21,327 nucleotides of DNA from an uncultured delta proteobacterium (lineage in GTDB: Bacteria > Desulfobacterota > Syntrophobacteria > BM002), in the NCBI GenBank assembly GCA_963712115.1, contig CAVQGX010000048.1, positions 1 through 21,327 of the forward strand. The letters are read 5' to 3'. The translations under genes were made by a program, and so were the position numbers. Within the stretch, counting starts at the first letter, position 1, and each line of letters opens with the position of its first letter. The notes beneath the pieces are model-generated. The model was not told where the DNA came from. It worked only from the letters and a program-made list of their open reading frames with translations, and made no database searches. Of this stretch, positions 2,858 to 21,327 are shown in pieces.

Positions 2858-3068
2858 AGTATGCCTTCGATCTTTAATCCTACCCTTTTTCCCCTTAAAT
2901 AATCTAATACTCTGGAGCCGGATATTTCATTACAGGTCCTGAAATCTGCTTCTTCCCCGCATAGCCGGATGTTCCACGGGCCAGGTTAAAGTTAAATCGC
3001 TTTGTTGATAAAGATGCGAGCTGTTTTCGAGTACTGGAGTATTTTGATGCTTGAGTAGCTAAAGATTC

Positions 3069-3202
3069 CAAATAAATCACAATGACCAACATTTAAAATC
3101 CCAAACTTTTGCATATTTATAAAATTATTCGAAATTTGTTTTGGTCATTGAAAATTGGAATTTAGGATTTGTTTGTAATTTGGTGCTTGGGATTTGGGAT
3201 TT
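3069..3202 (+). repeat. Imperfect palindromic intergenic repeat with ~7-nt periodicity (copy 1)
   Basis: CAAATAAATCACAATGACCAA...GTTTTGGTCATTG...TTGGGATTTGGGATTT. Aligns nearly end to end with the reverse complement of 4882-5018. Confidence 0.85.
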
Positions 3203-3827: not shown

Positions 3828-4856
3828 TTACAAAAACGATTCTACTTGTGCTGCCATTGGGAGGAGGCCGAAGATTCCCCCTGTATGGATAAATACGATT
3901 CTATCACCAAACACTTCCGGGTTCCGCTTCAGTTCCTGGGTCATTCCGTAAAAAGCTTTGCCAGTGTAGACCGGATCAAGAATTATACCTTCAGTGCGTG
4001 CCACTTCCACAAGAAGAGATAGCACCTGAAAACTTGCTTTGCCGTATCCCTCTCCCACATAGCCGTCGACTATGTGGATATCTTCTTGGGCGGAAAATGG
4101 GATTTCCAGTTTGTAGTTCGTTATGGCGGCATTGCAGATTTCACCTACCACGTCCATGAAATAATTCCTATCGTTGCAAACATTAATTCCTACGACCTGA
4201 GCTTCTAGTCCAACCAACCTTACTCCTAAAACAAGCCCGGCGGTAGTACCCCCGGAACCTGTAGCATGAATGATGGTCGTAGACCTGTCATTGTTGCCCA
4301 GGAGATCCTCTAGATCTTTAGCCAGCTCCTCCACCGCACGGACATAACCCCAGGCGCCCAGTACGTTGGAGCCCCCTTCGGGTATAACGTAAGGGGTTTT
4401 CCCCGACCTTCGAAGCGATTCCGCTTCACGCTCAAGCATTTCAGTGCGGCGGCCGTACTCCTCAAAGGTGAGCCAGACAATCTCTGCCCCAACCAGCCGG
4501 TCGAGTAATATATTTCCTTCGGCGGGCGGCGGATTCGCCGGATTACGGGTCCGGAGGAGTAACCGCGCCTCGAGTCCCAACTTAGCAGCGGCGATTGCCG
4601 TTGCCCTAGCGTGGTTCGACTGCGCAGCCCCACATGTCAATACTGTGTCGCTACCTTTCGCCAGAGCATCGGCAAGGAGGAATTCAAGCTTTCTCACTTT
4701 ATTGCCCGTAAGTTCAGCGCCCGTGAGATCATCTCGTTTGACGTACACTTCGACGCCTAATCTGTCGCTCAATCTTGAGAGGGGCTCGAGGGGCGTAGGA
4801 GTCCGGGCCAAATCTAAACGGGCGGGGTAGGGGATTTTTCGCGTTTTTTTGTTCAT
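3828..4856 (-). CDS. dcyD: D-cysteine desulfhydrase / ACC-deaminase-family PLP enzyme
   Basis: [24 protein letters not shown] (PLP lysine), [39 protein letters not shown]. Substrate is not proven. Confidence 0.9.
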
Positions 4857-4881: not shown

Positions 4882-5018
4882 AAATCCCAATTCCCAAGCA
4901 TCAAACTACAAATAAATTCCTAAATTCCAAATTCCAATAACCAAAACAGATTTGGAACGCCTTTATAAATATGAGTAAAAGTTTGGGATTTTAAATTTTG
5001 GTCATTGTGATTTATTTG
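4882..5018 (-). repeat. Imperfect palindromic intergenic repeat (copy 2, inverted relative to copy 1)
   Basis: Its reverse complement reads CAAATAAATCACAATGACCAAAATTTAAAATCCCAAACTTTT...TGCTTGGGAATTGGGATTT, matching 3069-3202. Confidence 0.85.
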
Positions 5019-5213
5019 TGATTTGTAATTTGAAATTTCCAATACCCGAGTACCCAAATAAAATTATATCTTAACCCCACGGGTGGTCTTTGTTAAAATG
5101 ATGATTATCTAGACTGTTTATGCCAATCTAGATAAAGCGCTGGCAGAACTAGAGTAACATAATTCAGCAAGGTGGCACACACCAGGGCCGAAATTGGAAG
5201 AAGGAGAAGAGAG

Positions 5214-11770: not shown

Positions 11771-12045
11771 GGTTTAAATATTTGGCCTTTCTTACCTATA
11801 ACTTCATCATCTTGTGCTAGGGCAGAAGTTTAGCTTAATCTAAGCTCACCCCTCTTCCTTTGAACGACCCCAGTTAAAACTAAAATGGTCGCTTGCACTC
11901 CAGATATGACGCCAGAGGCTCACCCTTTGGGTCCCTGTAAGCTCGGCGGTGGGGGTTTGTGATCCTTAAACATTGATTATCTTCAGTGGATATGTGGTAT
12001 AAACGCAGCAAGGTTGAAGAGCTACATGAAGCTAGAGGGTTCAAC

Positions 12046-12390
12046 ATGAAAAAAAATGATTGGATGTATTTTGTGAATGTCCTGCTCTTTGTGGACATCT
12101 GTTCTATTTTCGCCATCGGACTACTTTTGGCTGTTGTAATCCCTTCCGGCAGGGGTCGTTATACAGAAAAATATTTCATTGGATTACACAGGCACGATTG
12201 GGCAGATCTTCACTTCTACCTTGCACTATTCCTAGTAGTGCTTTTGATCTTGCATGTCTGGTTGAACTGGAAATGGGTGGCCCAGGCTACTAAGAGATAT
12301 TTCTCTGACCGATGGAAGAAAGCCCTAGTAGGTTTGTCTTGTGCTTGGCTAATTGTGCTTCTCTTTGGTTGGGTGATAATGAAATTTTGA
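12046..12390 (+). CDS. DUF4405-like small membrane protein
   Basis: Three TM segments with FIGLHRHDWADLHFY...LILHVWLNWKWV, the His pattern of DUF4405. Start ATG 12046 after GAGGG. Confidence 0.8.
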   Translation: MKKNDWMYFVNVLLFVDICSIFAIGLLLAVVIPSGRGRYTEKYFIGLHRHDWADLHFYLALFLVVLLILHVWLNWKWVAQATKRYFSDRWKKALVGLSCAWLIVLLFGWVIMKF

Positions 12391-12400
12391 CGATAATGAC

Positions 12401-12526
12401 TGGAAGCACAAGTTTGATCTTCGACCATATTGGAAAGCCGACAAGGAAGCAAGAAACGGGAAGTTGAATATCTGGTCACAAGAGAATTATGTTTATCCGA
12501 AGGAGTGGAGGAAGGGGAAGCGTAGA
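12401..12526 (+). pseudogene. 3' remnant of a thermonuclease (SNase-like) gene
   Basis: Translates as WKHKFDLRPYWKADKEARNGKLNIWSQENYVYPKEWRKGKRR, matching the SNase C-terminal pattern A..EAR..K..IW......P.EWR. No start or catalytic half. Confidence 0.6.
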
Positions 12527-12530
12527 AAGA

Positions 12531-12590
12531 CAACTATATTTTGTGAGAGAGTAAATTTAAGCGGAGTGTGAATTAATGGATGTAATCCAC
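12531..12590 (+). repeat. Composite box + dif-like site, copy A (interrupted by the IS1111-type element; continues at 13882)
   Basis: CTATATTTTG 12534-12543, 22 bp, GTGTGAATTAA-TGGATG-TAATCCAC|TTT from 12566. Confidence 0.8.
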
Positions 12591-12605
12591 ACCTATGAAA
12601 AAGCT

Positions 12606-12776
12606 GTTTGTCAAGTCAAAGATCTCTGTAACTGCCCGCTTGTAACCACGATATTGGGCTCATCGCCAAACACCTATCCGTGTTCACTCAAAGATGTCAC
12701 ACTATCATGTATGTGATAAACGGCGTCCCAATCACTTTCTCGGCCTCACCTTTTGTGGGCCATGTGGATTAACGGG
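12606..12776 (-). ncRNA. Bridge/seekRNA candidate of the IS1111-type element
   Basis: Two consecutive stem-closed internal loops on the minus strand, carrying TAATCCAC + GAAAGTG (target flanks) and ATCACA + ATAGGTGT (circle junction). Exact RNA ends are unknown. Confidence 0.8.
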
Positions 12777-13793
12777 TTACGCACATACAGGATAGGTCTC
12801 CATGTAAGGTGTTTGGTTTTTCCAAACGTAGAAAGCGTACTGCAAGATCTTATGGGCTGTGGCCACAATGGCCTTTTGATAGCCCGCCTTGACGATTCTT
12901 CTCCGGAAGAAAACACGCAAGCGGCAATTTTGCATTCTGGCTGCAGCCTGGGCAGCTTCGACCAGGGCGGTGCGCAGGTAGCGGGATCCTTGTTTGGTTA
13001 TCCTGCCCCTTTTCTCTTTGCCAGCACTGGCATCTAAACAAGGCACCAGACCAGCGTAAGAAGCCAGGTTCCGATATGAGCGAAAGCGGGAGATATCGTC
13101 TACCTCCGCTACAATGAACATGGCTGTGATAGGTCCAATGCCAGGGATAGTCATAAGAAGCTGGGCTGTATGGTTTTCCTTTGCCAGGACACGGACTCTT
13201 TTGCTTAAAGGCTCAATCTGCTCTTGGAGCCCTTGATAAAGTGAAAGATAAGTCTCGACTTGTCGGCGGTGGTAATCTGGCAAGTCAATCTCTTTGATAT
13301 AGCTCAATCCCTGAATACCAAAAAGATCGCTAAAAGGACTTCTGAAATTATTCTTCATCAGCAGCATATGAATACGGTTCTTCATGCGGGTGGCATCTCG
13401 AACCAATCTGCTTCTATGACGAAGTAGTTCCTTGAGTTTGCGTGTCTCAAGGCTGCTTACATGAACGGTAGAGATCAAATCATCCCTTAGAAGCTGAGCC
13501 AGCATATGAGAGTCTATCTTGTCGTTTTTGATCTTGGCCGAAGCAATGGCCTTGGTCTTCACTGGATTGGAGATCGCAACCTCAAAACCTTCTCCCGTAA
13601 GAAGATCATACAGCCAGTACCACGATGACATAGATTCAATGACGATTTTGCTCTCTTTGTCTAGGGTCGCAAAGTAAGCCAAAATGTCCTCTTCTACATT
13701 CTGCAGGTTGGATCGGGTGACGATCTTTCCATCTTCATCGATAGTAGTAATAAAAGATGTTTTCTTGTGTAAATCAATCCCAGTATAATACAT
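12777..13793 (-). CDS. IS110-family DEDD transposase/recombinase
   Basis: GIDLHK, IES, KNDKIDS (DEDD), IPGIGP, YAGLVP...ASAG (catalytic Ser region), ITKQGSRYLR. SD AAGGAGG. Confidence 0.97.
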   Translation of the reverse strand: MYYTGIDLHKKTSFITTIDEDGKIVTRSNLQNVEEDILAYFATLDKESKIVIESMSSWYWLYDLLTGEGFEVAISNPVKTKAIASAKIKNDKIDSHMLAQLLRDDLISTVHVSSLETRKLKELLRHRSRLVRDATRMKNRIHMLLMKNNFRSPFSDLFGIQGLSYIKEIDLPDYHRRQVETYLSLYQGLQEQIEPLSKRVRVLAKENHTAQLLMTIPGIGPITAMFIVAEVDDISRFRSYRNLASYAGLVPCLDASAGKEKRGRITKQGSRYLRTALVEAAQAAARMQNCRLRVFFRRRIVKAGYQKAIVATAHKILQYAFYVWKNQTPYMETYPVCA

Positions 13794-13981
13794 GGTGGCT
13801 ACCTCCTTTGTTTTGGGTTTCCCTCAAAGACCCCTTGTATAATACAAGGCCTCGAAGGAGGTAGCTTTTTCATATGATCACTTTCACAGTTCTCGAGATC
13901 AGTTTACCTTACTCATCATTAGTTAAGATCGCTCTCTCCTATTCAACCATCGAGTTTTTGCCAAAAAAAAGCTTCTCTCCC

Positions 13982-14010
13982 TTGACACTCATTGATTTTT
14001 AGATAATAAT
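13982..14010 (+). promoter_or_regulatory. Sigma-70 promoter candidate for the PKD gene
   Basis: TTGACA-17 nt-AATAAT, about 150 bp upstream of the CDS. Confidence 0.4.
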
Positions 14011-14156
14011 TTAAGAAGGTTATGTGCAAATTTCTGCTTACTTTTGACAGATAATTACACAAGTCACATTCCTGCGCTCTAATGCCCTCGATTTCAGATC
14101 ACTCTGTAATCTCAGAATAGGTGCTGAATATCTAACCAGTTGAATAAAAAACAACT

Positions 14157-16337
14157 ATGGTTATGTTGATGAAAACACGTTTCTTAACCACTTTCCTCTT
14201 TATTTTTCTCTTCCATACTTTTTCAGCCTCACAAGTTTTCGCAAAGGCTAAGGCAGGACGAGACCAAACCGTGGAAGAGGGTGACACGGTAATTTTGGAT
14301 GGATCTACATCGTATCTTAAAGGTGGCATTGACACTTATCAGTGGCAACAGACGGGCGGAAGCCCGACAGTGGTTCTAATAGGGGCTAATTCGGCTCATG
14401 CTAGTTTCGTTGCCCCAGATGTTGGAGTTGGTGGGACATTACTAACTTTTCAACTAACTGTCAGCAATGGTTCTGGGAAGTCTGATAAAGATACCACTAG
14501 GGTCCGTGTACTACATAGTAACGATCCGCCCATAGCAGATTCCGGCGATGACCAGACAGTGGACGAAGAAACCACAGTTACCCTGGATGGATCCAATTCT
14601 TATGATCCGGATCCTGGCGACAGCATTACTTATAAATGGGAGCAGATAGGGGGAAGCTCGACAGTAGAGTTGACTGGTGCTAATTCAGCGAAGGCAAGCT
14701 TTACTGCACCTAATGTTCTTAACGACACAAAACTGGACTTCCAGTTAACCGTCACTGATAGTTCAGGTTCCTCCGATACGGATAGAACTTCTGTGAATGT
14801 GCGAGGAGATAACGATCCTCCAATTGCAGAGGCAGGTCCGAATCAGAATGTAAATGAAGGCAGTCTTGTTATTTTGAATGGATCCAATTCTTATGATTCG
14901 GACCTTGGTGATACCATCACTTACCAGTGGATACAGACTGGTGGGAACCCGACTGTTACGCTGAACGGAGCAAATACAGCCACCCCTAGTTTTACCGCTC
15001 CAAATGTTAGAGTAGAAGGAGCATCGTTAACTTTCAAGTTGACAGTGACTGATTTCGGCAGGTTGGAAGATAGCGATACTACAGTTGTAAATGTAAGCTT
15101 CGTGAACCAACCGCCTATAGCTGATGCTGGTCCAAATCAGACGATGGGGGAGGAGACTGAGGTTACTCTGGACGGATCCAATTCCAGTGATCCGGACCAA
15201 GGCGATGGCATTAAATCTTATCGGTGGAGGCAAACAGCTGGATCTGAAGTAAAATTGTCTGACGACAGGGCGGTCAAATCCACCTTTAAGGCCCCGAATG
15301 TGGTAGGTAGCAGATCACTTACATTGGAATTAACGGTTACCGATTTTGGGGGATTGCAATCTTCAGATACTACGATTGTCAATGTGACCGGAGACAATGA
15401 TCCTCCCACGGCAGATGCGGGTCCTGATCAAACGATGGGGGAGCAGACTGAGGTTACTTTGGACGGATCCAATTCCAGTGATCCGGATGATGGAATCAAA
15501 TCTTATCGGTGGAGGCAAACAGCTGGACCTCTGGTCACTTTGTCTAATCCTCAGGCCAAGAAACCCACCTTTAAGGCTCCGAATGTGGTAGGTAGCAGAT
15601 CACTTACATTCGAATTAACGGTTACCGATTTTGGGGGATTGCAATCTTCAGATACTACGATTGTCAATGTGACCGGAGACAATGATCCTCCCACGGCCAA
15701 AGCAGGAATTGATCAGACGGTCGAAGAAAATACTATAGTTGTCCTAGACGGCTCCACTTCATTTGATCCGGATGGCGGCATTAAGTCCTATCAGTGGGAA
15801 CAAATAGCCGGACCAGCGGTAACCTTGTCCGACCCGACTGTAGCTCAACCTAGCTTTACGGTTCCGAATGTTGGAGCAGATGGAGTATCACTAACCTTCG
15901 AGATGACCATAACGGATGTAGACGGTTTGCAGTCAGCGGATACTGTGATTGTAAATGTCACAGGGGATAATGATCCTCCCGCAGCAAATGCTGGAATTGA
16001 TCAGACGGTGCTGGAGAAAGGTACAGTCACTTTAGACGGCTCCACTTCATTTGATCCGGATGACGGCATTGCATCATATCGGTGGAAACAGGTAGCAGGA
16101 CCCTCGGTCACCCTTTCCGATCCCACAGAGGATCGACCGACCTTTGAGGCTCCAAGTTTTGATGACAGTGGTGACCAACCACTAATCTTTGAGTTGATAG
16201 TTACAGATAATGGCGGTTTGCAGTCTAGTGATTCAACAACTGTTTCGGTCTCAAATTATGAGAAAGATAACCCGGGCGCATCGGGAGGCGGTTGTTTTAT
16301 CGACACCGCAGCCTACGGGTTCCGTAGGGCAAAATAG
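14157..16337 (+). CDS. Secreted/surface protein with seven tandem PKD/REJ-like Ig domains and a C-terminal GGGCFI motif
   Basis: Signal peptide; seven repeats of AxAGxDQTV...LDGSxSxD...YxWxQ...FxAP...LTVTD; ends GASGGGCFIDTAAYG (CFI-box-CTERM-like). Confidence 0.9.
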   Translation: MVMLMKTRFLTTFLFIFLFHTFSASQVFAKAKAGRDQTVEEGDTVILDGSTSYLKGGIDTYQWQQTGGSPTVVLIGANSAHASFVAPDVGVGGTLLTFQLTVSNGSGKSDKDTTRVRVLHSNDPPIADSGDDQTVDEETTVTLDGSNSYDPDPGDSITYKWEQIGGSSTVELTGANSAKASFTAPNVLNDTKLDFQLTVTDSSGSSDTDRTSVNVRGDNDPPIAEAGPNQNVNEGSLVILNGSNSYDSDLGDTITYQWIQTGGNPTVTLNGANTATPSFTAPNVRVEGASLTFKLTVTDFGRLEDSDTTVVNVSFVNQPPIADAGPNQTMGEETEVTLDGSNSSDPDQGDGIKSYRWRQTAGSEVKLSDDRAVKSTFKAPNVVGSRSLTLELTVTDFGGLQSSDTTIVNVTGDNDPPTADAGPDQTMGEQTEVTLDGSNSSDPDDGIKSYRWRQTAGPLVTLSNPQAKKPTFKAPNVVGSRSLTFELTVTDFGGLQSSDTTIVNVTGDNDPPTAKAGIDQTVEENTIVVLDGSTSFDPDGGIKSYQWEQIAGPAVTLSDPTVAQPSFTVPNVGADGVSLTFEMTITDVDGLQSADTVIVNVTGDNDPPAANAGIDQTVLEKGTVTLDGSTSFDPDDGIASYRWKQVAGPSVTLSDPTEDRPTFEAPSFDDSGDQPLIFELIVTDNGGLQSSDSTTVSVSNYEKDNPGASGGGCFIDTAAYGFRRAK

Positions 16338-16455: not shown

Positions 16456-16991
16456 CTTGAAAATTCCCCGCAGCTTGCTGCGGGGTCTCTCCCTGTGCTA
16501 ATCAGGGAGTATGTCAGATGATACAGTAAGCAAAGGTTACCATTGCGCTTGGCAAATTCACTATCACATCGTATTTCCGGTGAAATACCGCAAAGCATTG
16601 TTGGACTTGGAAGTGGTGGAAATCATTGTAGAGACGGCTGAAGGTATTGCTGAGAGGTATGCCATTGAGATGGAAGCCATTGGTTGTGACAAAGAACATA
16701 TACACCTGCTATGTGGTGCCCATCCAAAGATAGCACCCGGTAGGATTGTTCAGATATTCAAAAGTATCACGGCACGCGAAATATTTCGACGTAAGCCATC
16801 AGTGAAAAAGGAGCTCTGGGGTGGCGAGTTTTGGACAGACGGCTACTATGTTGCAACAGTTGGTGAAAGGGCCAACTGGGATACAGTAGAAAAGTACATC
16901 AAGAGCCACGGTAGACCCAAAGCCGATCTCAAACAACTCAAACTGTTCGAATAAGGTTTGATACCCTGCAGCTTGCTGCAGGGTCATTCAT
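16456..16991 (+). mobile_element. IS200-type element (tnpA only)
   Basis: Subterminal hairpins CCCCGCAGC-TT-GCTGCGGGG (16466-16485) and ACCCTGCAGC-TT-GCTGCAGGGT (16963-16984). Right end probably TCAT at 16991 with guide GATA, by analogy with IS608 pairing rules. Left end uncertain by several bases. Confidence 0.88.
16511..16954 (+). CDS. tnpA: IS200/IS605 Y1 (HUH) transposase
   Basis: YHIVFPVKYRK, EHIHLL (HUH), KSITAR, LWGGEFWTDGYYVATVG, KYI (catalytic Tyr). Confidence 0.97.
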   Translation: MSDDTVSKGYHCAWQIHYHIVFPVKYRKALLDLEVVEIIVETAEGIAERYAIEMEAIGCDKEHIHLLCGAHPKIAPGRIVQIFKSITAREIFRRKPSVKKELWGGEFWTDGYYVATVGERANWDTVEKYIKSHGRPKADLKQLKLFE

Positions 16992-17703: not shown

Positions 17704-18759
17704 ATGATGAAACAGCTCTTAAAAGAAGTCCTTCCTCCGTCAGCAATCGGCTGGCTCCAACGATTGAAGCTCAATTATTCTTTATCCCGTCGATACAAGC
17801 GAATGCCGTTTGAAATCGGCGATATTCTACCAGGATCTTTTAAGACGACCTAGGAGTCTGTCGGAGTACCTCTTTATTGGACACTTGGTGGTCATCGTGG
17901 CCCTAATGGGACCCTAAAACGGCGAATGGAGTGGTCAACGTTAGTCAGAATGCCAGTGCGACTGAACCTTGCGTCCCTATTTTTCCATTGAGAGCTAGTT
18001 AGTCCGACACACTCCTAGGCTGATCTTGAGGAAAAACACTCACCTGAGTTTAAAAAAATTATGGCTAAAATGGTGAGCTTCCTCGGCGCAGGTCCGATTG
18101 GCCCCAACAAGTATTGGGAATACCCGTGGGTCATTAAAAACCTAGATTTAAAACCGGGCATGACTTTTCTAGATGCCGGGTGTGGCCGTGCCCCGATTCA
18201 ATATTTTTTGGCTGACCTAGGAATTCGGGTCAGTGGAATTGACCCAGAGGAAAACGTAGCTTGGCATGGAATTGACCGAAGATTGGCTAGAAAATTTTCT
18301 TTGGATATCGACTACCGAGTAGAGGGGATGGAGAAGATAAGTTATCCGGACGAGTTCTTCGATCGAGTCGCCTCCGTTTCTGTACTTAAGCACTGTCGTG
18401 CGAAGCCAGTTAAAAAAGAGTGGACTGTTCCTCAGAATGCTGAAGATCGAAAACTTCACGGCAAAATGATTCAGGAAATGGCCCGCGTGCTTAAGAATGG
18501 CGGGCTCCTCATAATCACACTCGATATTATCTTCCCGAAAAATGGAGCGATCTTAGAGGCCAATATCGACGTTAAAAACCTCATCGACTGCGGCAAAGCT
18601 GATGGCCTTGACCTGTTGGGTTTTGAGGGGCCCGAAGCGTATTACGGATACGAGGGTTTTGATATCCATACTCTCGAAAAACGACCGGGGCTTGATATCC
18701 AGGATTACGAAGGAATCGTGGGTACCTCTTTGGGCTTGGTGTTTAAGAAGTTGCCTTAA
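17704..18759 (+). pseudogene. Class I SAM-dependent methyltransferase with its 5' part interrupted by a MITE (catalytic part 18061-18759 intact)
   Basis: WEYPW, FLDAGCG, YPDEFFDRV, EMARVLKNGGLL. The upstream 49-codon ORF MMKQLLKEVLPP...GSFKTT (17704-17853) is in frame with the downstream part once the MITE is removed. Confidence 0.75.
17850..18018. mobile_element. MITE, 161 bp, with CTAG direct repeats
   Basis: TIRs GAGTCTGTCGGAGTA (17854-17868) and TAGTCCGACACACTC (18000-18014), 13/15 matching. CTAG on both sides; no transposase. Confidence 0.85.
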
Positions 18760-18988
18760 GCAACTTTCCGCTCTTCAGACTGTGTCTTAGGAAGCGATAT
18801 CTCAAAGGTAGTATGAGGGGTGCCAGAGGGAATCTCGAAGTGACCGCCATGATCGAGAACAACTCTTCGTGAGATACTCAGACCCAGCCCCGTGCCTTTT
18901 CCTACTCTCTTAGTCGTAAAAAACGGCTGCAAGAAGGACAGTTACCTGATGAGGTTATTGATAAAGTGCTGCATTGGTTGAAAGAGAT

Positions 18989-19120
18989 GTGGCACAAACT
19001 CAGAGAACCCCCCTTACACCTTTTAAATGCCCCAAGTGCAAACTCACCATCATGGCTATACCAGATGACAAAGTGTGTCCTGTCTGCGGGAGTTCGTTGC
19101 AGCAACTTGTGAAGCGTTGA
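18989..19120 (+). CDS. Small zinc-ribbon protein (43 aa)
   Basis: GTG start; MAQTQRTPLTPFKCPKCKLTIMAIPDDKVCPVCGSSLQQLVKR with CPKC and CPVCG. Shorter than any ORF in the supplied track. Confidence 0.6.
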   Translation: MAQTQRTPLTPFKCPKCKLTIMAIPDDKVCPVCGSSLQQLVKR

Positions 19121-19124
19121 AAGC

Positions 19125-19234
19125 CAACTATATTTTGTACCGACATGAAACTCAGCAAAGTGTAAATTAAGGGATGTTATGCAAAGTCTGATCACATCCC
19201 TTCCTGCTACCCACCTCACTTTCTCTGGTTGCCC
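19125..19234 (+). repeat. Composite box + dif-like site, copy B
   Basis: CTATATTTTG 19128-19137, 22 bp, GTGTAAATTAA-GGGATG-TTATGCAAAGT 19160-19187, tail CCTCACTTTCTCTGGTTGCCC. Confidence 0.85.
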
Positions 19235-19353
19235 ACAATTGGAATTTTATTTCTCAAAATATGACCTAAAATGCCTAGGCTTCCATACCTGGTTTTCAGC
19301 ATAATACCGGCTAAGCTATTATAGATAAACGAAAAACCAACCAGACTCCTGCC

Positions 19354-19368
19354 TGGCACAATTATTGT
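19354..19368 (+). promoter_or_regulatory. Sigma-54-like promoter candidate before the tRNA-like element
   Basis: TGGCAC-AATTA-TTGT (GT in place of GC at -12). Predicted start about 19380, just before the tRNA-like 5' end. Confidence 0.45.
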
Positions 19369-19386
19369 TTAGTCAAGATGCATTGT

Positions 19387-19464
19387 GGAGGCGAGACTCA
19401 GCAGTTGGGACAATAAAAGTTTGCGGTGCTGGGGTCGTGGGTTCGACTCCCACCGCCTCCACCA
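19387..19464 (+). ncRNA. tRNA-like RNA / degenerate tRNA gene
   Basis: 78 nt: acceptor stem GGAGGCG/CGCCTCC, discriminator A, encoded CCA, perfect T-arm GTGGG-TTCGACT-CCCAC. D and anticodon stems do not pair canonically. Confidence 0.7.
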
Positions 19465-19481
19465 AACAAGGAAAATGTTGA

Positions 19482-19769
19482 ATGATGCTCCCCTGCTCAC
19501 AATGTAGCAAGATATGTTTTCTAGATGACTTCCATGAGATTGACTACTCTGCTGAGGGATTCTCTGCTTTCTGCAGCAAGGAGTGCAAGGATAATTGGTA
19601 CTCAAGAGTACCTCCAGAGTATGATTCTGACTGCACTTGTGAGGGGTGCAAAAGGACACTCGGGCAGGGAAAATCACCTGTTGAATTTTGGTCCTATACA
19701 GAACCTTATTATTTCTGTGGTCAAATGTGCAGAGATAAGTGGTTACTGGGCATTTCGGATAACCTGTAG
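19482..19769 (+). CDS. Small Cys-rich protein with two tandem TRASH/FCS-like metal-binding motifs
   Basis: CSQC...FCSKECKDNW and CEGC...FCGQMCRDKW. Confidence 0.7.
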   Translation: MMLPCSQCSKICFLDDFHEIDYSAEGFSAFCSKECKDNWYSRVPPEYDSDCTCEGCKRTLGQGKSPVEFWSYTEPYYFCGQMCRDKWLLGISDNL

Positions 19770-19803
19770 CCAAATTCGAATCACCTCTGAGATAGGAAAT
19801 AAT

Positions 19804-19980
19804 TTGAGAGCAAACCGAGGCATTCGGGCATTAATAAAGATTTACAAGAATATATTCCGCATTCCAGAGAACCTTAATCACTACTTAGAGAAAGACCACA
19901 GAGCCGCAGAAAGGAAATTCCTGAAGCATGCGCTAGAATAGCGCAGAATCGAAAACGAAGAAGAACTTTTCGAAGAATGA
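19804..19980 (+). pseudogene. Small hypothetical gene with an internal amber codon at 19939-19941
   Basis: TTG start after ATAGGA; MRANRGIRALIKIYKNIFRIPENLNHYLEKDHRAAERKFLKHALE*RRIENEEELFEE*. The final TGA overlaps the next ATG (ATGA). Confidence 0.45.
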
Positions 19981-20066
19981 TACCTTCGCCTACTCCAAAA
20001 GATTTAACTGTCATGATTTTCCTCGCTTTTGCCTGGTGGTTATTGTTAGTCGGGATAGTCCTCTAA
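19977..20066 (+). CDS. Possible 29-aa single-TM peptide
   Basis: MIPSPTPKDLTVMIFLAFAWWLLLVGIVL; ATGA overlap with the upstream frame. Confidence 0.35.
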   Translation: MIPSPTPKDLTVMIFLAFAWWLLLVGIVL

Positions 20067-20116
20067 ATGGCGCAGCAGTGAAAACAGATTAGGCACATAT
20101 TCATTTTTCAAAGAAC

Positions 20117-20290
20117 ATGAAAAATATTGCTTGCTACGTTCTATGGGGATTCCTCGTCCTTCTCCTCATTAGTTTTTCTACCGCACTTCTGGAAACATTA
20201 TTGCACGTCAGGATACACTATTACTTAATAAATACAGTTTTCGTCCTGGCCCTGGTAGCTCTGCACTACTTTAAATTTCGCAAGAGTTGA
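20117..20290 (+). CDS. Small two-TM membrane protein (57 aa)
   Basis: MKNIACYVLWGFLVLLLISFSTALLETLLHVRIHYYLINTVFVLALVALHYFKFRKS: two hydrophobic segments with basic ends; weak SD. Confidence 0.55.
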   Translation: MKNIACYVLWGFLVLLLISFSTALLETLLHVRIHYYLINTVFVLALVALHYFKFRKS

Positions 20291-20420
20291 ATACACATAC
20301 ACGGCCTTATCCATAAAATCCTCTCCACCTGGCTCTACCGGACTCACCCACCCAATTCCCTGAATACCTCGGCACTGAAATCAGCTCTTCTTTAATTTCT
20401 ATCATGGTTGCCTTAACCTC

Positions 20421-20515
20421 TGCCAATATCTTGTGTCAGAGTAAATTCCAGGATAGTGTGAATTAAGGGATGTAATGCAAAGTCTGCCCCCCCTCCATGC
20501 TGCCACCCCCACTTT
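20421..20515 (+). repeat. Composite box + dif-like site, copy C
   Basis: CAATATCTTG 20424-20433, 22 bp, GTGTGAATTAA-GGGATG-TAATGCAAAGT 20456-20483, tail GCTGCCACCCCCACTTT. Confidence 0.85.
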
Positions 20516-20528
20516 GAGTCAAGACCTA

Positions 20529-20544
20529 TGGCATAATTAGTGCA
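20529..20544 (+). promoter_or_regulatory. Sigma-54 (-24/-12) promoter candidate
   Basis: TGG-CATAATTAGT-GCA, about 45 bp upstream of the PilZ gene. Confidence 0.65.
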
Positions 20545-20586
20545 TCTCTGCTCCCCAAAAACAAATCAATCTGGGAGAAACGTAAG

Positions 20587-20970
20587 ATGCTTGGAAAACC
20601 TGGTATTAAATATCCAAAAGCTCCAGTTAAATGGTACGTTTCAGCGCAAGCTGGTAGTAAGGAAATTGCCGGAGTAACAAAGGAACTTAGTACACGCCAA
20701 GCGTATATTTGTTGCTCTGAACCATTACGCCTTAAAGAAGTTTTTGATTTGGTGATTGCTTCTCCTGAGCGTGACATACCGATCAAAGCAGAAGTCGTCT
20801 GGTCGAATAAATACGGATATGATGACCAAATTACGCCGCGTGGAATGGGTGTTCGCTTTGTAGAAATCTCTGAAGAAGACCGAAGACTCATTGCCGAAGT
20901 GGTAAACGAGCATGATCTAGTGAAGATTGCGGCTGATTATCTGGATACCTTGGAGACAGACAATAATTGA
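20587..20970 (+). CDS. PilZ domain protein (degenerate c-di-GMP motifs), paralog of 1418-1822
   Basis: SD GGGAG; AEVVWSNKYGYDDQITPRGMGVRF versus VEVVWTNIYGPDDDLTPRGMGVRF in the 1418 gene. Confidence 0.85.
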   Translation: MLGKPGIKYPKAPVKWYVSAQAGSKEIAGVTKELSTRQAYICCSEPLRLKEVFDLVIASPERDIPIKAEVVWSNKYGYDDQITPRGMGVRFVEISEEDRRLIAEVVNEHDLVKIAADYLDTLETDNN

Positions 20971-21105
20971 AAATTTGCGCACCAGTTGACCCTAAATCTG
21001 CAGTCCTCAAAATAACAACTGTATCTCAAAAGCGTCAGCTACACTTTTTACGTCCCTGGGCTCCAACGCGACCCCTACGGTCTGAGTTCGCTCTCGCTTG
21101 ACAGA

Positions 21106-21260
21106 TATCAATATCTTGTGCCAGATCAAATTCTCGCCGAGTGTGAATTAAGGGATGTAATATTAAGCCCGACTGAGATCCTTGGGAATTAAGCATTGTT
21201 CGATCTTATTTCAGCTCAAACCTGTCCGTACTGCCAACCTCACTTTCTCTGTGGTTGCCC
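21106..21260 (+). repeat. Composite box + dif-like site, copy D
   Basis: CAATATCTTG 21109-21118, 22 bp, GTGTGAATTAA-GGGATG-TAATATTAAGC 21141-21168, longer insert, tail CCTCACTTTCTCTGTGGTTGCCC. Confidence 0.85.
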
Positions 21261-21327
21261 GGAGTGCAGGGACCACATCAGACTTTTTTCCTATTTACAT
21301 AAGAATTGTTTTATAATAAAATAAGTA

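Follow-up and report, generated by a model that had tools for sequence, protein, structure and literature searches.

A probable RNA-guided IS1111-group insertion sequence inserted in an extragenic palindromic repeat of an uncultured delta proteobacterium

The window analysed here is the 21,327-nucleotide stretch of an uncultured delta proteobacterium at positions 1 to 21,327 of contig CAVQGX010000048.1 (assembly GCA_963712115.1), and it belongs to a genome (G000, the own genome in what follows) of 4.9 Mb in 70 contigs that is 94% complete. At 12592-13880 of the window, on the minus strand, lies what is very probably an intact insertion sequence (IS) of the IS1111 group, IS110 family, that chooses its target by means of an RNA. 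It stands in one copy (copy A) of a palindromic repeat, here termed the T site, that occurs many times in this genome. The features of the element were assigned as follows.

12592 to 13880, minus strand: IS1111-group insertion sequence, 1289 bp including one copy of the core (13879-13880), delimited by the alignment of relatives and the 7/3 bp rule
12777 to 13793, minus strand: transposase (recombinase) gene, 338 aa, from Pfam, NCBIfam and the alignment with IS621
13863 to 13880, minus strand: left end, where TGATCAT (7 bp, transposase strand) precedes the subterminal inverted repeat
12592 to 12605, minus strand: right end, where the subterminal inverted repeat precedes AGG (3 bp, transposase strand)
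12592 to 12776, minus strand: predicted seek/bridge RNA gene, the 185-nt non-coding right end (criterion of PMC11208160 and PMC11187229)
12723 to 12782, minus strand: predicted target-binding stem-loop, with closing stem, two-guide internal loop and terminal hairpin (RNAalifold, 9 elements)
12763 to 12772, minus strand: predicted 5' guide, complement of the top strand of the core and of 8 nt of right target in the T-site arm (6-8 of 8 matching in 9/9 elements)
12733 to 12741, minus strand: predicted 3' guide, of the same sense as 7 nt of left target and the core, and equal to CACTTTCTC on the plus strand (5-6 of 7 in 8/8 elements)
12671 to 12677, minus strand: candidate donor guide, equal to the right-end tip and core (conserved in all 9 elements)

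The open reading frame (ORF) at 12777-13793 encodes a 338-residue IS110-family transposase in which the DEDD RuvC-like domain (Pfam DEDD_Tnp_IS110, PF01548, E = 6e-26) and the C-terminal Tnp domain (Transposase_20, PF02371, E = 5e-29) were both found, and which scored 266 bits against the NCBIfam model NF033542, 'IS110 family RNA-guided transposase' (cut-off 140). Alignment to IS621 (8wt6) using phmmer placed the D of GIDLHK, the E of VIESM, the two D residues of KNDKID and the S of LDAS opposite the IS621 residues whose roles in the DEDD motif and as catalytic Ser are described in PMC11208158, and the predicted catalytic set of D, E, D, D and Ser is present. The non-coding ends measure 87 nt on the left and 185 nt on the right; a long non-coding region downstream of the gene and a short one upstream is an IS1111 criterion (PMC11208160, PMC11187229). 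The domains, the ends and the non-coding layout demonstrate family membership and bear out the IS1111-type element of the first-pass annotation, and as far as can be judged from its sequence the element shows every IS1111 feature that was open to testing.

The ends were set by comparing the four copies in the own genome (contigs C48, which is the window, C36, C42 and C41; 91-98% identity) with four distant relatives from other Desulfobacterales-type metagenome-assembled genomes (MAGs; 66-74% protein identity). This comparison gave a right end ...CATAGG and a left end ATCATATG..., which together with the bases adjoining them on the transposase strand read TG-ATCATATGAAAAAGC... on the left and ...GCTTTTTCATAGG-TG on the right. 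The TG, which appears as CA on the plus strand of the window, was taken as the core because these are the only bases shared by both junctions in all of the elements, and the two junction cores stand at 12590-12591 and 13879-13880. Removal of 12591-13881, the limits proposed previously, does yield the restored string reported with them, but those ends are off by two bases: in the restored copy A a CA stands between ...TAATCCA and CTTTCACAG, two bases more than had been given. Three independent checks agree on the corrected limits of 12592-13880. Only with these do 7 bp lie beyond the subterminal inverted repeat at the left end and 3 bp beyond it at the right end; the repeats measure 11-12 bp and have these same outer lengths in 8/8 complete elements, in keeping with the repeats of 7-17 bp and outer lengths of about 7 bp and 3 bp given for IS1111 (PMC11208160, PMC11187229). 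An uninterrupted site in the closed genome of a sister species (L038:6192-6243, minus strand) has the form ...GGATGTAATCCACACTTTCACA, in agreement with the corrected ends, and the spacing of the corrected restored site is also that of its uninterrupted paralogues in the own genome.

The interrupted T site was read on the plus strand as the following parts.

12525 to 12591, plus strand: left part of copy A, with left module, left arm, 7-nt spacer, inner right arm and the first core CA (12590-12591)
12566 to 12586, plus strand: 21-nt T core of copy A, with one mismatch to the consensus (T for G in the spacer)
13881 to 13900, plus strand: outer right arm of copy A and start of the right module

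The claim that the IS lies in the right arm of copy A was confirmed. The two short stems into which the restored site had been folded give way to a better fold, a palindrome of 11-bp arm, 7-nt spacer and 11-bp arm. The folding energy of the natural uninterrupted site is not unusual (z = -0.91), and among the hairpins of two other copies in the window that of copy D is not unusual either (z = +1.19) and that of copy B is weak (z = -1.73).

A degenerate pattern detected 155 T cores in the own genome, and the 21-mer core gave 125 matches with four or fewer mismatches, compared with 0 in 622 kb of shuffled sequence; a reversed control pattern gave 0 matches in all genomes surveyed. The fullest form of the site is AAAGTGTGAATTA-AGGGATG-TAATyCACACTTT (13-7-13), of which the left arm and spacer are conserved and the right arm is degenerate, with a conserved module of about 45 nt lying on its left. 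In a second type the arms are more perfect and the spacer is AAGTATG; 99 sites were assigned to the AGGGATG type by a classifier and most of the other 56 to AAGTATG. Just 5 of the 155 cores lie inside ORFs of at least 150 aa, though such frames make up 75% of the genome. On a few contigs the sites are densely packed, following small ORFs at spacings of 0.7-1.5 kb, and 17 divergent (inverted) doublets are found at fixed spacing (12 at 77-78 nt and 5 at 134-135 nt). In the closed sister genome T sites also lie between ordinary genes. Within the genus, 16 of 17 genomes contain the 21-mer, as does the one genome of a second genus, and it was present in none of three further genera of the family. 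An Rfam search of the T units in 18900-21327 gave no match, and a full-text literature search returned no paper with two T core strings.

All four copies of the IS in the own genome stand at one position of the T site, and because the sequence beyond the T unit is unrelated in each case they represent independent insertions. On the transposase strand the four restored targets read ...GAAAG|TG|TGGATTAC, ...AAGAG|TG|TAAATTAA, ...AAAAG|TG|TGAATTAA and ...CGAAG|TG|TGAATTAA. Three of the copies are in left arms. The window copy is in a right arm, that of copy A read from the other strand, where 6/7 and 7/8 of the positions specified by the two guides match, and an insertion there is possible because the arms of copy A are complementary at 10 of 11 positions. 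In sister species the IS is present mostly as fragments at contig ends, and eight of ten junctions lie at the same T-site position, four of them right-end junctions (one in G015, two in G011, one in G003) and four left-end junctions (one each in G018 and G006, two in G005). Among the junctions that could be assigned, no insertion of the element was found at a site unrelated to the repeat family. The distant relatives are at unrelated sequences, and these fit their own, different guides. In one of the sister genomes (L024, G005:C172) a 93-nt palindrome at about 1500-1593 was observed, in which two IS left ends meet head to head between opposed T left modules, as though two inverted IS copies had recombined with each other.

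The RNAalifold consensus of the right ends of the nine elements begins with a stem-loop whose internal loop has about 10 nt on each side. Across the alignment the stems are invariant, and variation falls in the columns of the two loop strands, that is, the guides; past the core, the 3' loop strand continues with AT, the two bases with which the left end begins. The order of the guides and their overlap at the core agree across the nine elements with the description of IS1111 seekRNAs, in which the complement of the top strand precedes the match to the bottom strand and the guides overlap at the crossover (PMC11187229). For the eight elements with both flanks available, guide and flank agreed at 11, 12, 12, 12, 13, 13, 13 and 14 of 15 positions, and at 8/8 for the ninth, which has one flank only, compared with 4-8 of 15 in 36 non-cognate pairings between own-genus elements and distant relatives. 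Comparison of the closest copies, on C48 and C36, showed differences at 5 of 15 guide positions and at 24 of 1277 others (Fisher p = 1e-5). These counts demonstrate covariation between guide and flank. A second loop carries ATAGGTG, identical to the right-end tip and core, in 9/9 elements and is a candidate donor guide.

Next, the four 17-mers encoded by the guides were searched for in the own genome. With two or fewer mismatches 16, 11, 15 and 8 matches were obtained, of which 14, 10, 15 and 6 were in T left arms and 2, 1, 0 and 2 in truncated T units, so that the guide-coded target matched exclusively at T sites. With three or fewer mismatches there were 35-68 matches, compared with 9-15 in a shuffled genome. 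The proposal of the first-pass annotation that the element is specialised for this repeat family is supported by the 4/4 own copies, the 8/10 sister junctions and the match of the guides to the consensus. One other interpretation is that the IS has no such specialisation and that the shared flanks reflect duplication of the IS together with its surroundings, or chance. The copies do have about 20 nt in common on the repeat side, but the flanks beyond the T unit are unrelated, the guides vary between copies in step with the local site variant, and other species likewise have their junctions at T sites, and this explanation is extremely improbable.

For the specialised, RNA-guided element the following scheme is proposed. 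The 185-nt non-coding region downstream of the recombinase gene would encode a seek/bridge RNA whose first stem-loop presents two guides in an internal loop. The 5' guide would complement the top strand of the core TG and the next 8 nt; the 3' guide, being of the same sense as the 7 nt before the core and the core itself, would pair with the bottom strand of the target. The circularised element would then recombine with the target at the 2-nt core, leaving a core at both junctions. In this genus the guides would be set to a single left-arm position of the T site, ...AAG | TG | TGRATTAA...; since copy A is palindromic almost throughout, the window copy would have entered its right arm, in the opposite orientation. 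That the RNA is transcribed and processed, that there is a circular intermediate and that the element is active at the present day are steps that we infer.

Several observations weigh against an element that is RNA-guided, specialised and active. Two of the ten sister junctions (G016 and G010) could not be assigned to a T site, and kin genomes are not independent samples. The 7-nt guide agrees with its own flank at only 5-6 of 7 positions, and a compensatory change was seen in just 2 of the 47 pairs of the consensus fold; with so little covariation, the RNA structure rests on conservation and analogy. No Rfam family matched the right end, where E-values of up to 10 gave only noise in 12400-14000, and no match reached the gathering score anywhere in the window. 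In the covered parts of contigs from four public sequencing runs neither a joint across the IS nor a circle junction nor an empty site was seen, and in contigs of two of the runs the match ends at 13882. IS-like contigs that are 90-95% alike were present in one RNA library, but these may be DNA or relatives and so are not proof of expression. In two runs (X1 and X3) the summed contig depth over 11900-14500 was roughly 10-40 times higher on the IS than on its flanks; contig depth is a poor measure, but the excess indicates that relatives of the IS are abundant in those sediment samples.

Three further copies of the T site lie in the window.

19119 to 19232, plus strand: T-site copy B, with a tail containing the exact 9-mer at 19217-19225
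20415 to 20510, plus strand: T-site copy C
21100 to 21256, plus strand: T-site copy D, with a tail containing the exact 9-mer at 21241-21249

It had been noticed earlier that the right target guide recurs exactly in the tails of copies B and D, whose left flanks do not match the other guide. Both statements hold, and because the other guide does not fit there the tails are half-sites only. The window has three occurrences of the 9-mer CACTTTCTC, one inside the IS (12733-12741) and two in the tails (19217-19225 and 21241-21249), compared with a mean of 0.31 in dinucleotide shuffles, 0/100 of which reached three, and across the genome an exact copy is present in 8 of 151 T units. The palindrome supplies six of the nine bases: CACTTT is the outer right-arm motif, the complement of the left-arm AAAGTG. 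The last three bases may be due to chance. It was also considered whether the tail is an inverted partner of the unit's own left flank. This was rejected, with 8/151 such units compared with 6.5 ± 2.3 for permuted 9-mers and 8 in an upstream control; the corresponding fold holds only for copy B and one other unit.

The repeat had been described as dif-like. An 11-6-11 register and a weak likeness are indeed present, but the genuine dif is a different site, AGTCTGATAA-TGTATA-TTATGTAAACT at C43:75937-75963 of the own genome, and it is single-copy, as against 155 T sites, and found in 20 of 22 genomes of the family. It could be that the T site is nevertheless a dif-like substrate of XerC/XerD, and that the IS is specialised for Xer sites in the way that attC-targeting IS1111 elements are for integrons. 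The restored copy A agrees with the own dif at 17 of 28 positions, including 8/12 in the XerD-side arm; T sites as a whole average 15.5/28, above shuffled T sites (mean 12.8, 99th percentile 16); and Acinetobacter is reported to have modules flanked by Xer sites together with IS that target pdif/dif sites. However, the genuine dif is conserved letter for letter in most of the family, the XerC-side arm of copy A matches it at just 5/10 positions, the most symmetric reading of the T site has a 7-nt spacer, with both spacer types unlike that of dif, and some likeness between two AT-rich palindromes is to be expected. A role as a Xer substrate therefore seems improbable, and 'dif-like' appears to describe, rather loosely, a likeness of architecture only. 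XerC/D-like genes are present on C62 and C30. A second site with arms as in the genuine dif and a different 6-bp centre was observed in two other genomes (G004:C1:280948-280974 and G005:C48:5156-5182), and could be the junction of an element integrating by Xer.

T sites were also compared with attC. A crude scan found no RYYYAAC/GTTRRRY boxes at the T sites of the window, and the attC reading was rejected, a true attC family being located elsewhere: an integron integrase gene (C27:2329-3303; TIGR02249, 487 bits) is adjoined by classical attC sites of another sequence family, with only 11 3' halves of such sites genome-wide. In the segment G000:C27:1-3303, which runs off the contig start, this intI is accompanied by three or more classical attC sites and small reverse-strand ORFs upstream. 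At four other places (C13:18488, C31:156394, C42:183891 and C27:118259) a T2 core is followed 55-57 nt later by a classical attC 3' half, with no attC 5' half upstream, which makes these hybrid sites.

With the repetitive extragenic palindromic (REP) elements and their REPIN arrangements the T site shares a short imperfect palindrome, an extragenic position, many copies and inverted doublets. It could be that T sites are a selfish or structural repeat of this type with no recombination role, and that the IS uses them as an abundant and harmless landing pad. The position of 150 of the 155 cores outside ORFs of at least 150 aa, the 17 doublets and the sites between ordinary genes in the closed sister genome all favour this, and IS110/IS1111 homing to REPs is already known. 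It is a serious possibility, held tentatively: the sites are crowded on few contigs after small ORFs, left modules combine with right modules independently at the core, modules that have T cores as their borders reappear in other surroundings, and no link to a REP-associated tyrosine transposase (RAYT) was seen, none of the four PF01797 (Y1 transposase) matches in the genome being flanked by T sites. Two of these are on T-free contigs, one is 124 kb from the nearest T site, and the one in the window is flanked by another hairpin. This last is an ORF at 16511-16954 (plus strand; PF01797, 116 bits) between GC-rich hairpins at 16463-16487 and 16961-16985 (88% alike); the unit is IS200-like or RAYT-like, and its repeat is unrelated to T sites.

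The first-pass annotation had further suggested that targeting by the IS would independently show the repeats to be functional sites. This does not follow, since IS110/IS1111 members home to any repeat that their guides match, REP elements included (PMC11208160, PMC12288879, PMC11187229), and the IS itself is no proof of repeat function. Separate evidence of function comes from modules bounded by T cores, which appear from sequence comparison to have been shuffled within and between species. Where two units share the left half and differ in the right (9 pairs), divergence begins at +15 to +28; where they share the right half and differ in the left (7 pairs), it ends at -6 to +3. Three examples of modules were examined. 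Contigs C3 and C28 have in common a 1.9-kb segment of 90% identity. Its start is inside a T core, whose spacer type differs between the two contigs, and it ends without reaching the next T unit, at the terminator ahead of that unit's left module. The segment from core B to core C of the window (19157-20471) recurs in another species (G012) at 89% identity, between two T sites and with unrelated neighbours, and that from core C to core D (20461-21161) recurs in the same species on another contig.

One interpretation of these data is that a tyrosine recombinase, but neither XerCD nor IntI, performs its crossover at the T site, and that T-bounded cassettes form an integron-like system without attC. 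The arm-spacer-arm layout with two spacer types, the assortment of halves at the core in 9 and 7 pairs, the three recurring segments and the several phage-type integrase genes near T arrays, such as the one at G000:C39:10724-11977, are consistent with this. The reading is possible but on balance doubtful: no test made here ties any recombinase to T sites, homology on the right side ends at the start of a T left module and not in the core, the module examples number three, and repeats often mark breaks in synteny without being recombination sites. Bolder, and in our view unlikely, is a version in which T sites are the crossover sites of genus-wide cassette shuffling, neither integron nor classical Xer, where two mutually exclusive spacer types could allow directed exchange and with which the IS1111 lineage has co-evolved by rapid retuning of its guides. 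If a recombinase does act at T cores, this would be a second, unrecognised cassette system in a genome with a small ordinary integron. The repeat modules, a by-product of the analysis, are of more interest than the IS. The T site is an extragenic palindromic unit, conserved across the genus, that resembles a REP/REPIN family in its behaviour and also stands at the borders of shuffled gene modules.

Some other features of the window were noted. A tmRNA fragment at 19387-19464 (plus strand), inside the module 19157-20471, scored 46 bits with Rfam RF00023 (gathering score 47; E = 1.8e-16), and ARAGORN found no gene there; an island integrated in ssrA may have left it behind as a relic of its attachment site. 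A stretch of ~170 nt at about 17848-18022 recurs with 98-99% identity on ten or more further contigs of the own genome and with 73-78% in a second genus, and is another multi-copy element. The 726-aa ORF at 14157-16337 (plus strand) contains six or more tandem repeats of 285-294 nt. Inverted repeats of ~60-65 nt (83% complementary) at 3060-3170 and 4915-5027 surround an ORF at 3828-4856 (minus strand), and the whole may be another mobile element.

Published work already describes how IS110/IS1111 elements find REPs, attC sites and transposon ends by means of a programmable RNA, and the homing of an unrelated IS family to dif/pdif sites is likewise in print; the element described here adds no new principle. 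It is a clean natural example of seek/bridge-RNA programming and useful as comparative material: the guides and flanks of nine related elements can be read side by side, near-identical copies in one genome differ mainly in their guides, and the window copy illustrates a palindromic target that is usable from either arm. ISPa11 (IS1111, REP-targeting) and IS621 and ISPpu9 (IS110, in REPs) likewise have a DEDD recombinase and a 2-nt core (PMC11187229, PMC12288879, PMC11208160), are RNA-guided, and use one position in an abundant extragenic palindrome in fixed orientation to the arm; in ISPa11 the guide RNA is also downstream of the gene, with the top-strand complement first. Unlike these three, the window IS belongs to a different host lineage, with relatives in Desulfobacterales-type MAGs, and uses a different repeat, one that occurs in cassette-like arrays with two spacer types, and one of its copies is in the opposite arm of the palindrome. 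The IS1111-attC group (ISPst6, ISKpn4) likewise homes to one end of a palindromic recombination site that bounds cassettes (PMC11187229), whereas the T site is not attC, and the canonical attC sites of this genome, beside intI, are a separate and small family. In the seekRNA reprogramming of ISEc11 and ISXne4 relatives also differ mainly in their guides and are found at correspondingly different targets (PMC11187229); for the window IS the reprogramming is among copies in one genome and between variants of one repeat family. Finally, the pdif modules of Acinetobacter with their IS1202-family elements are similar in having many arm-spacer-arm sites that bound accessory modules, and an IS at a fixed position in them, but pdif sites are close copies of dif and T sites are not, and the window IS is of another family and is, on the evidence of its guides, RNA-guided.

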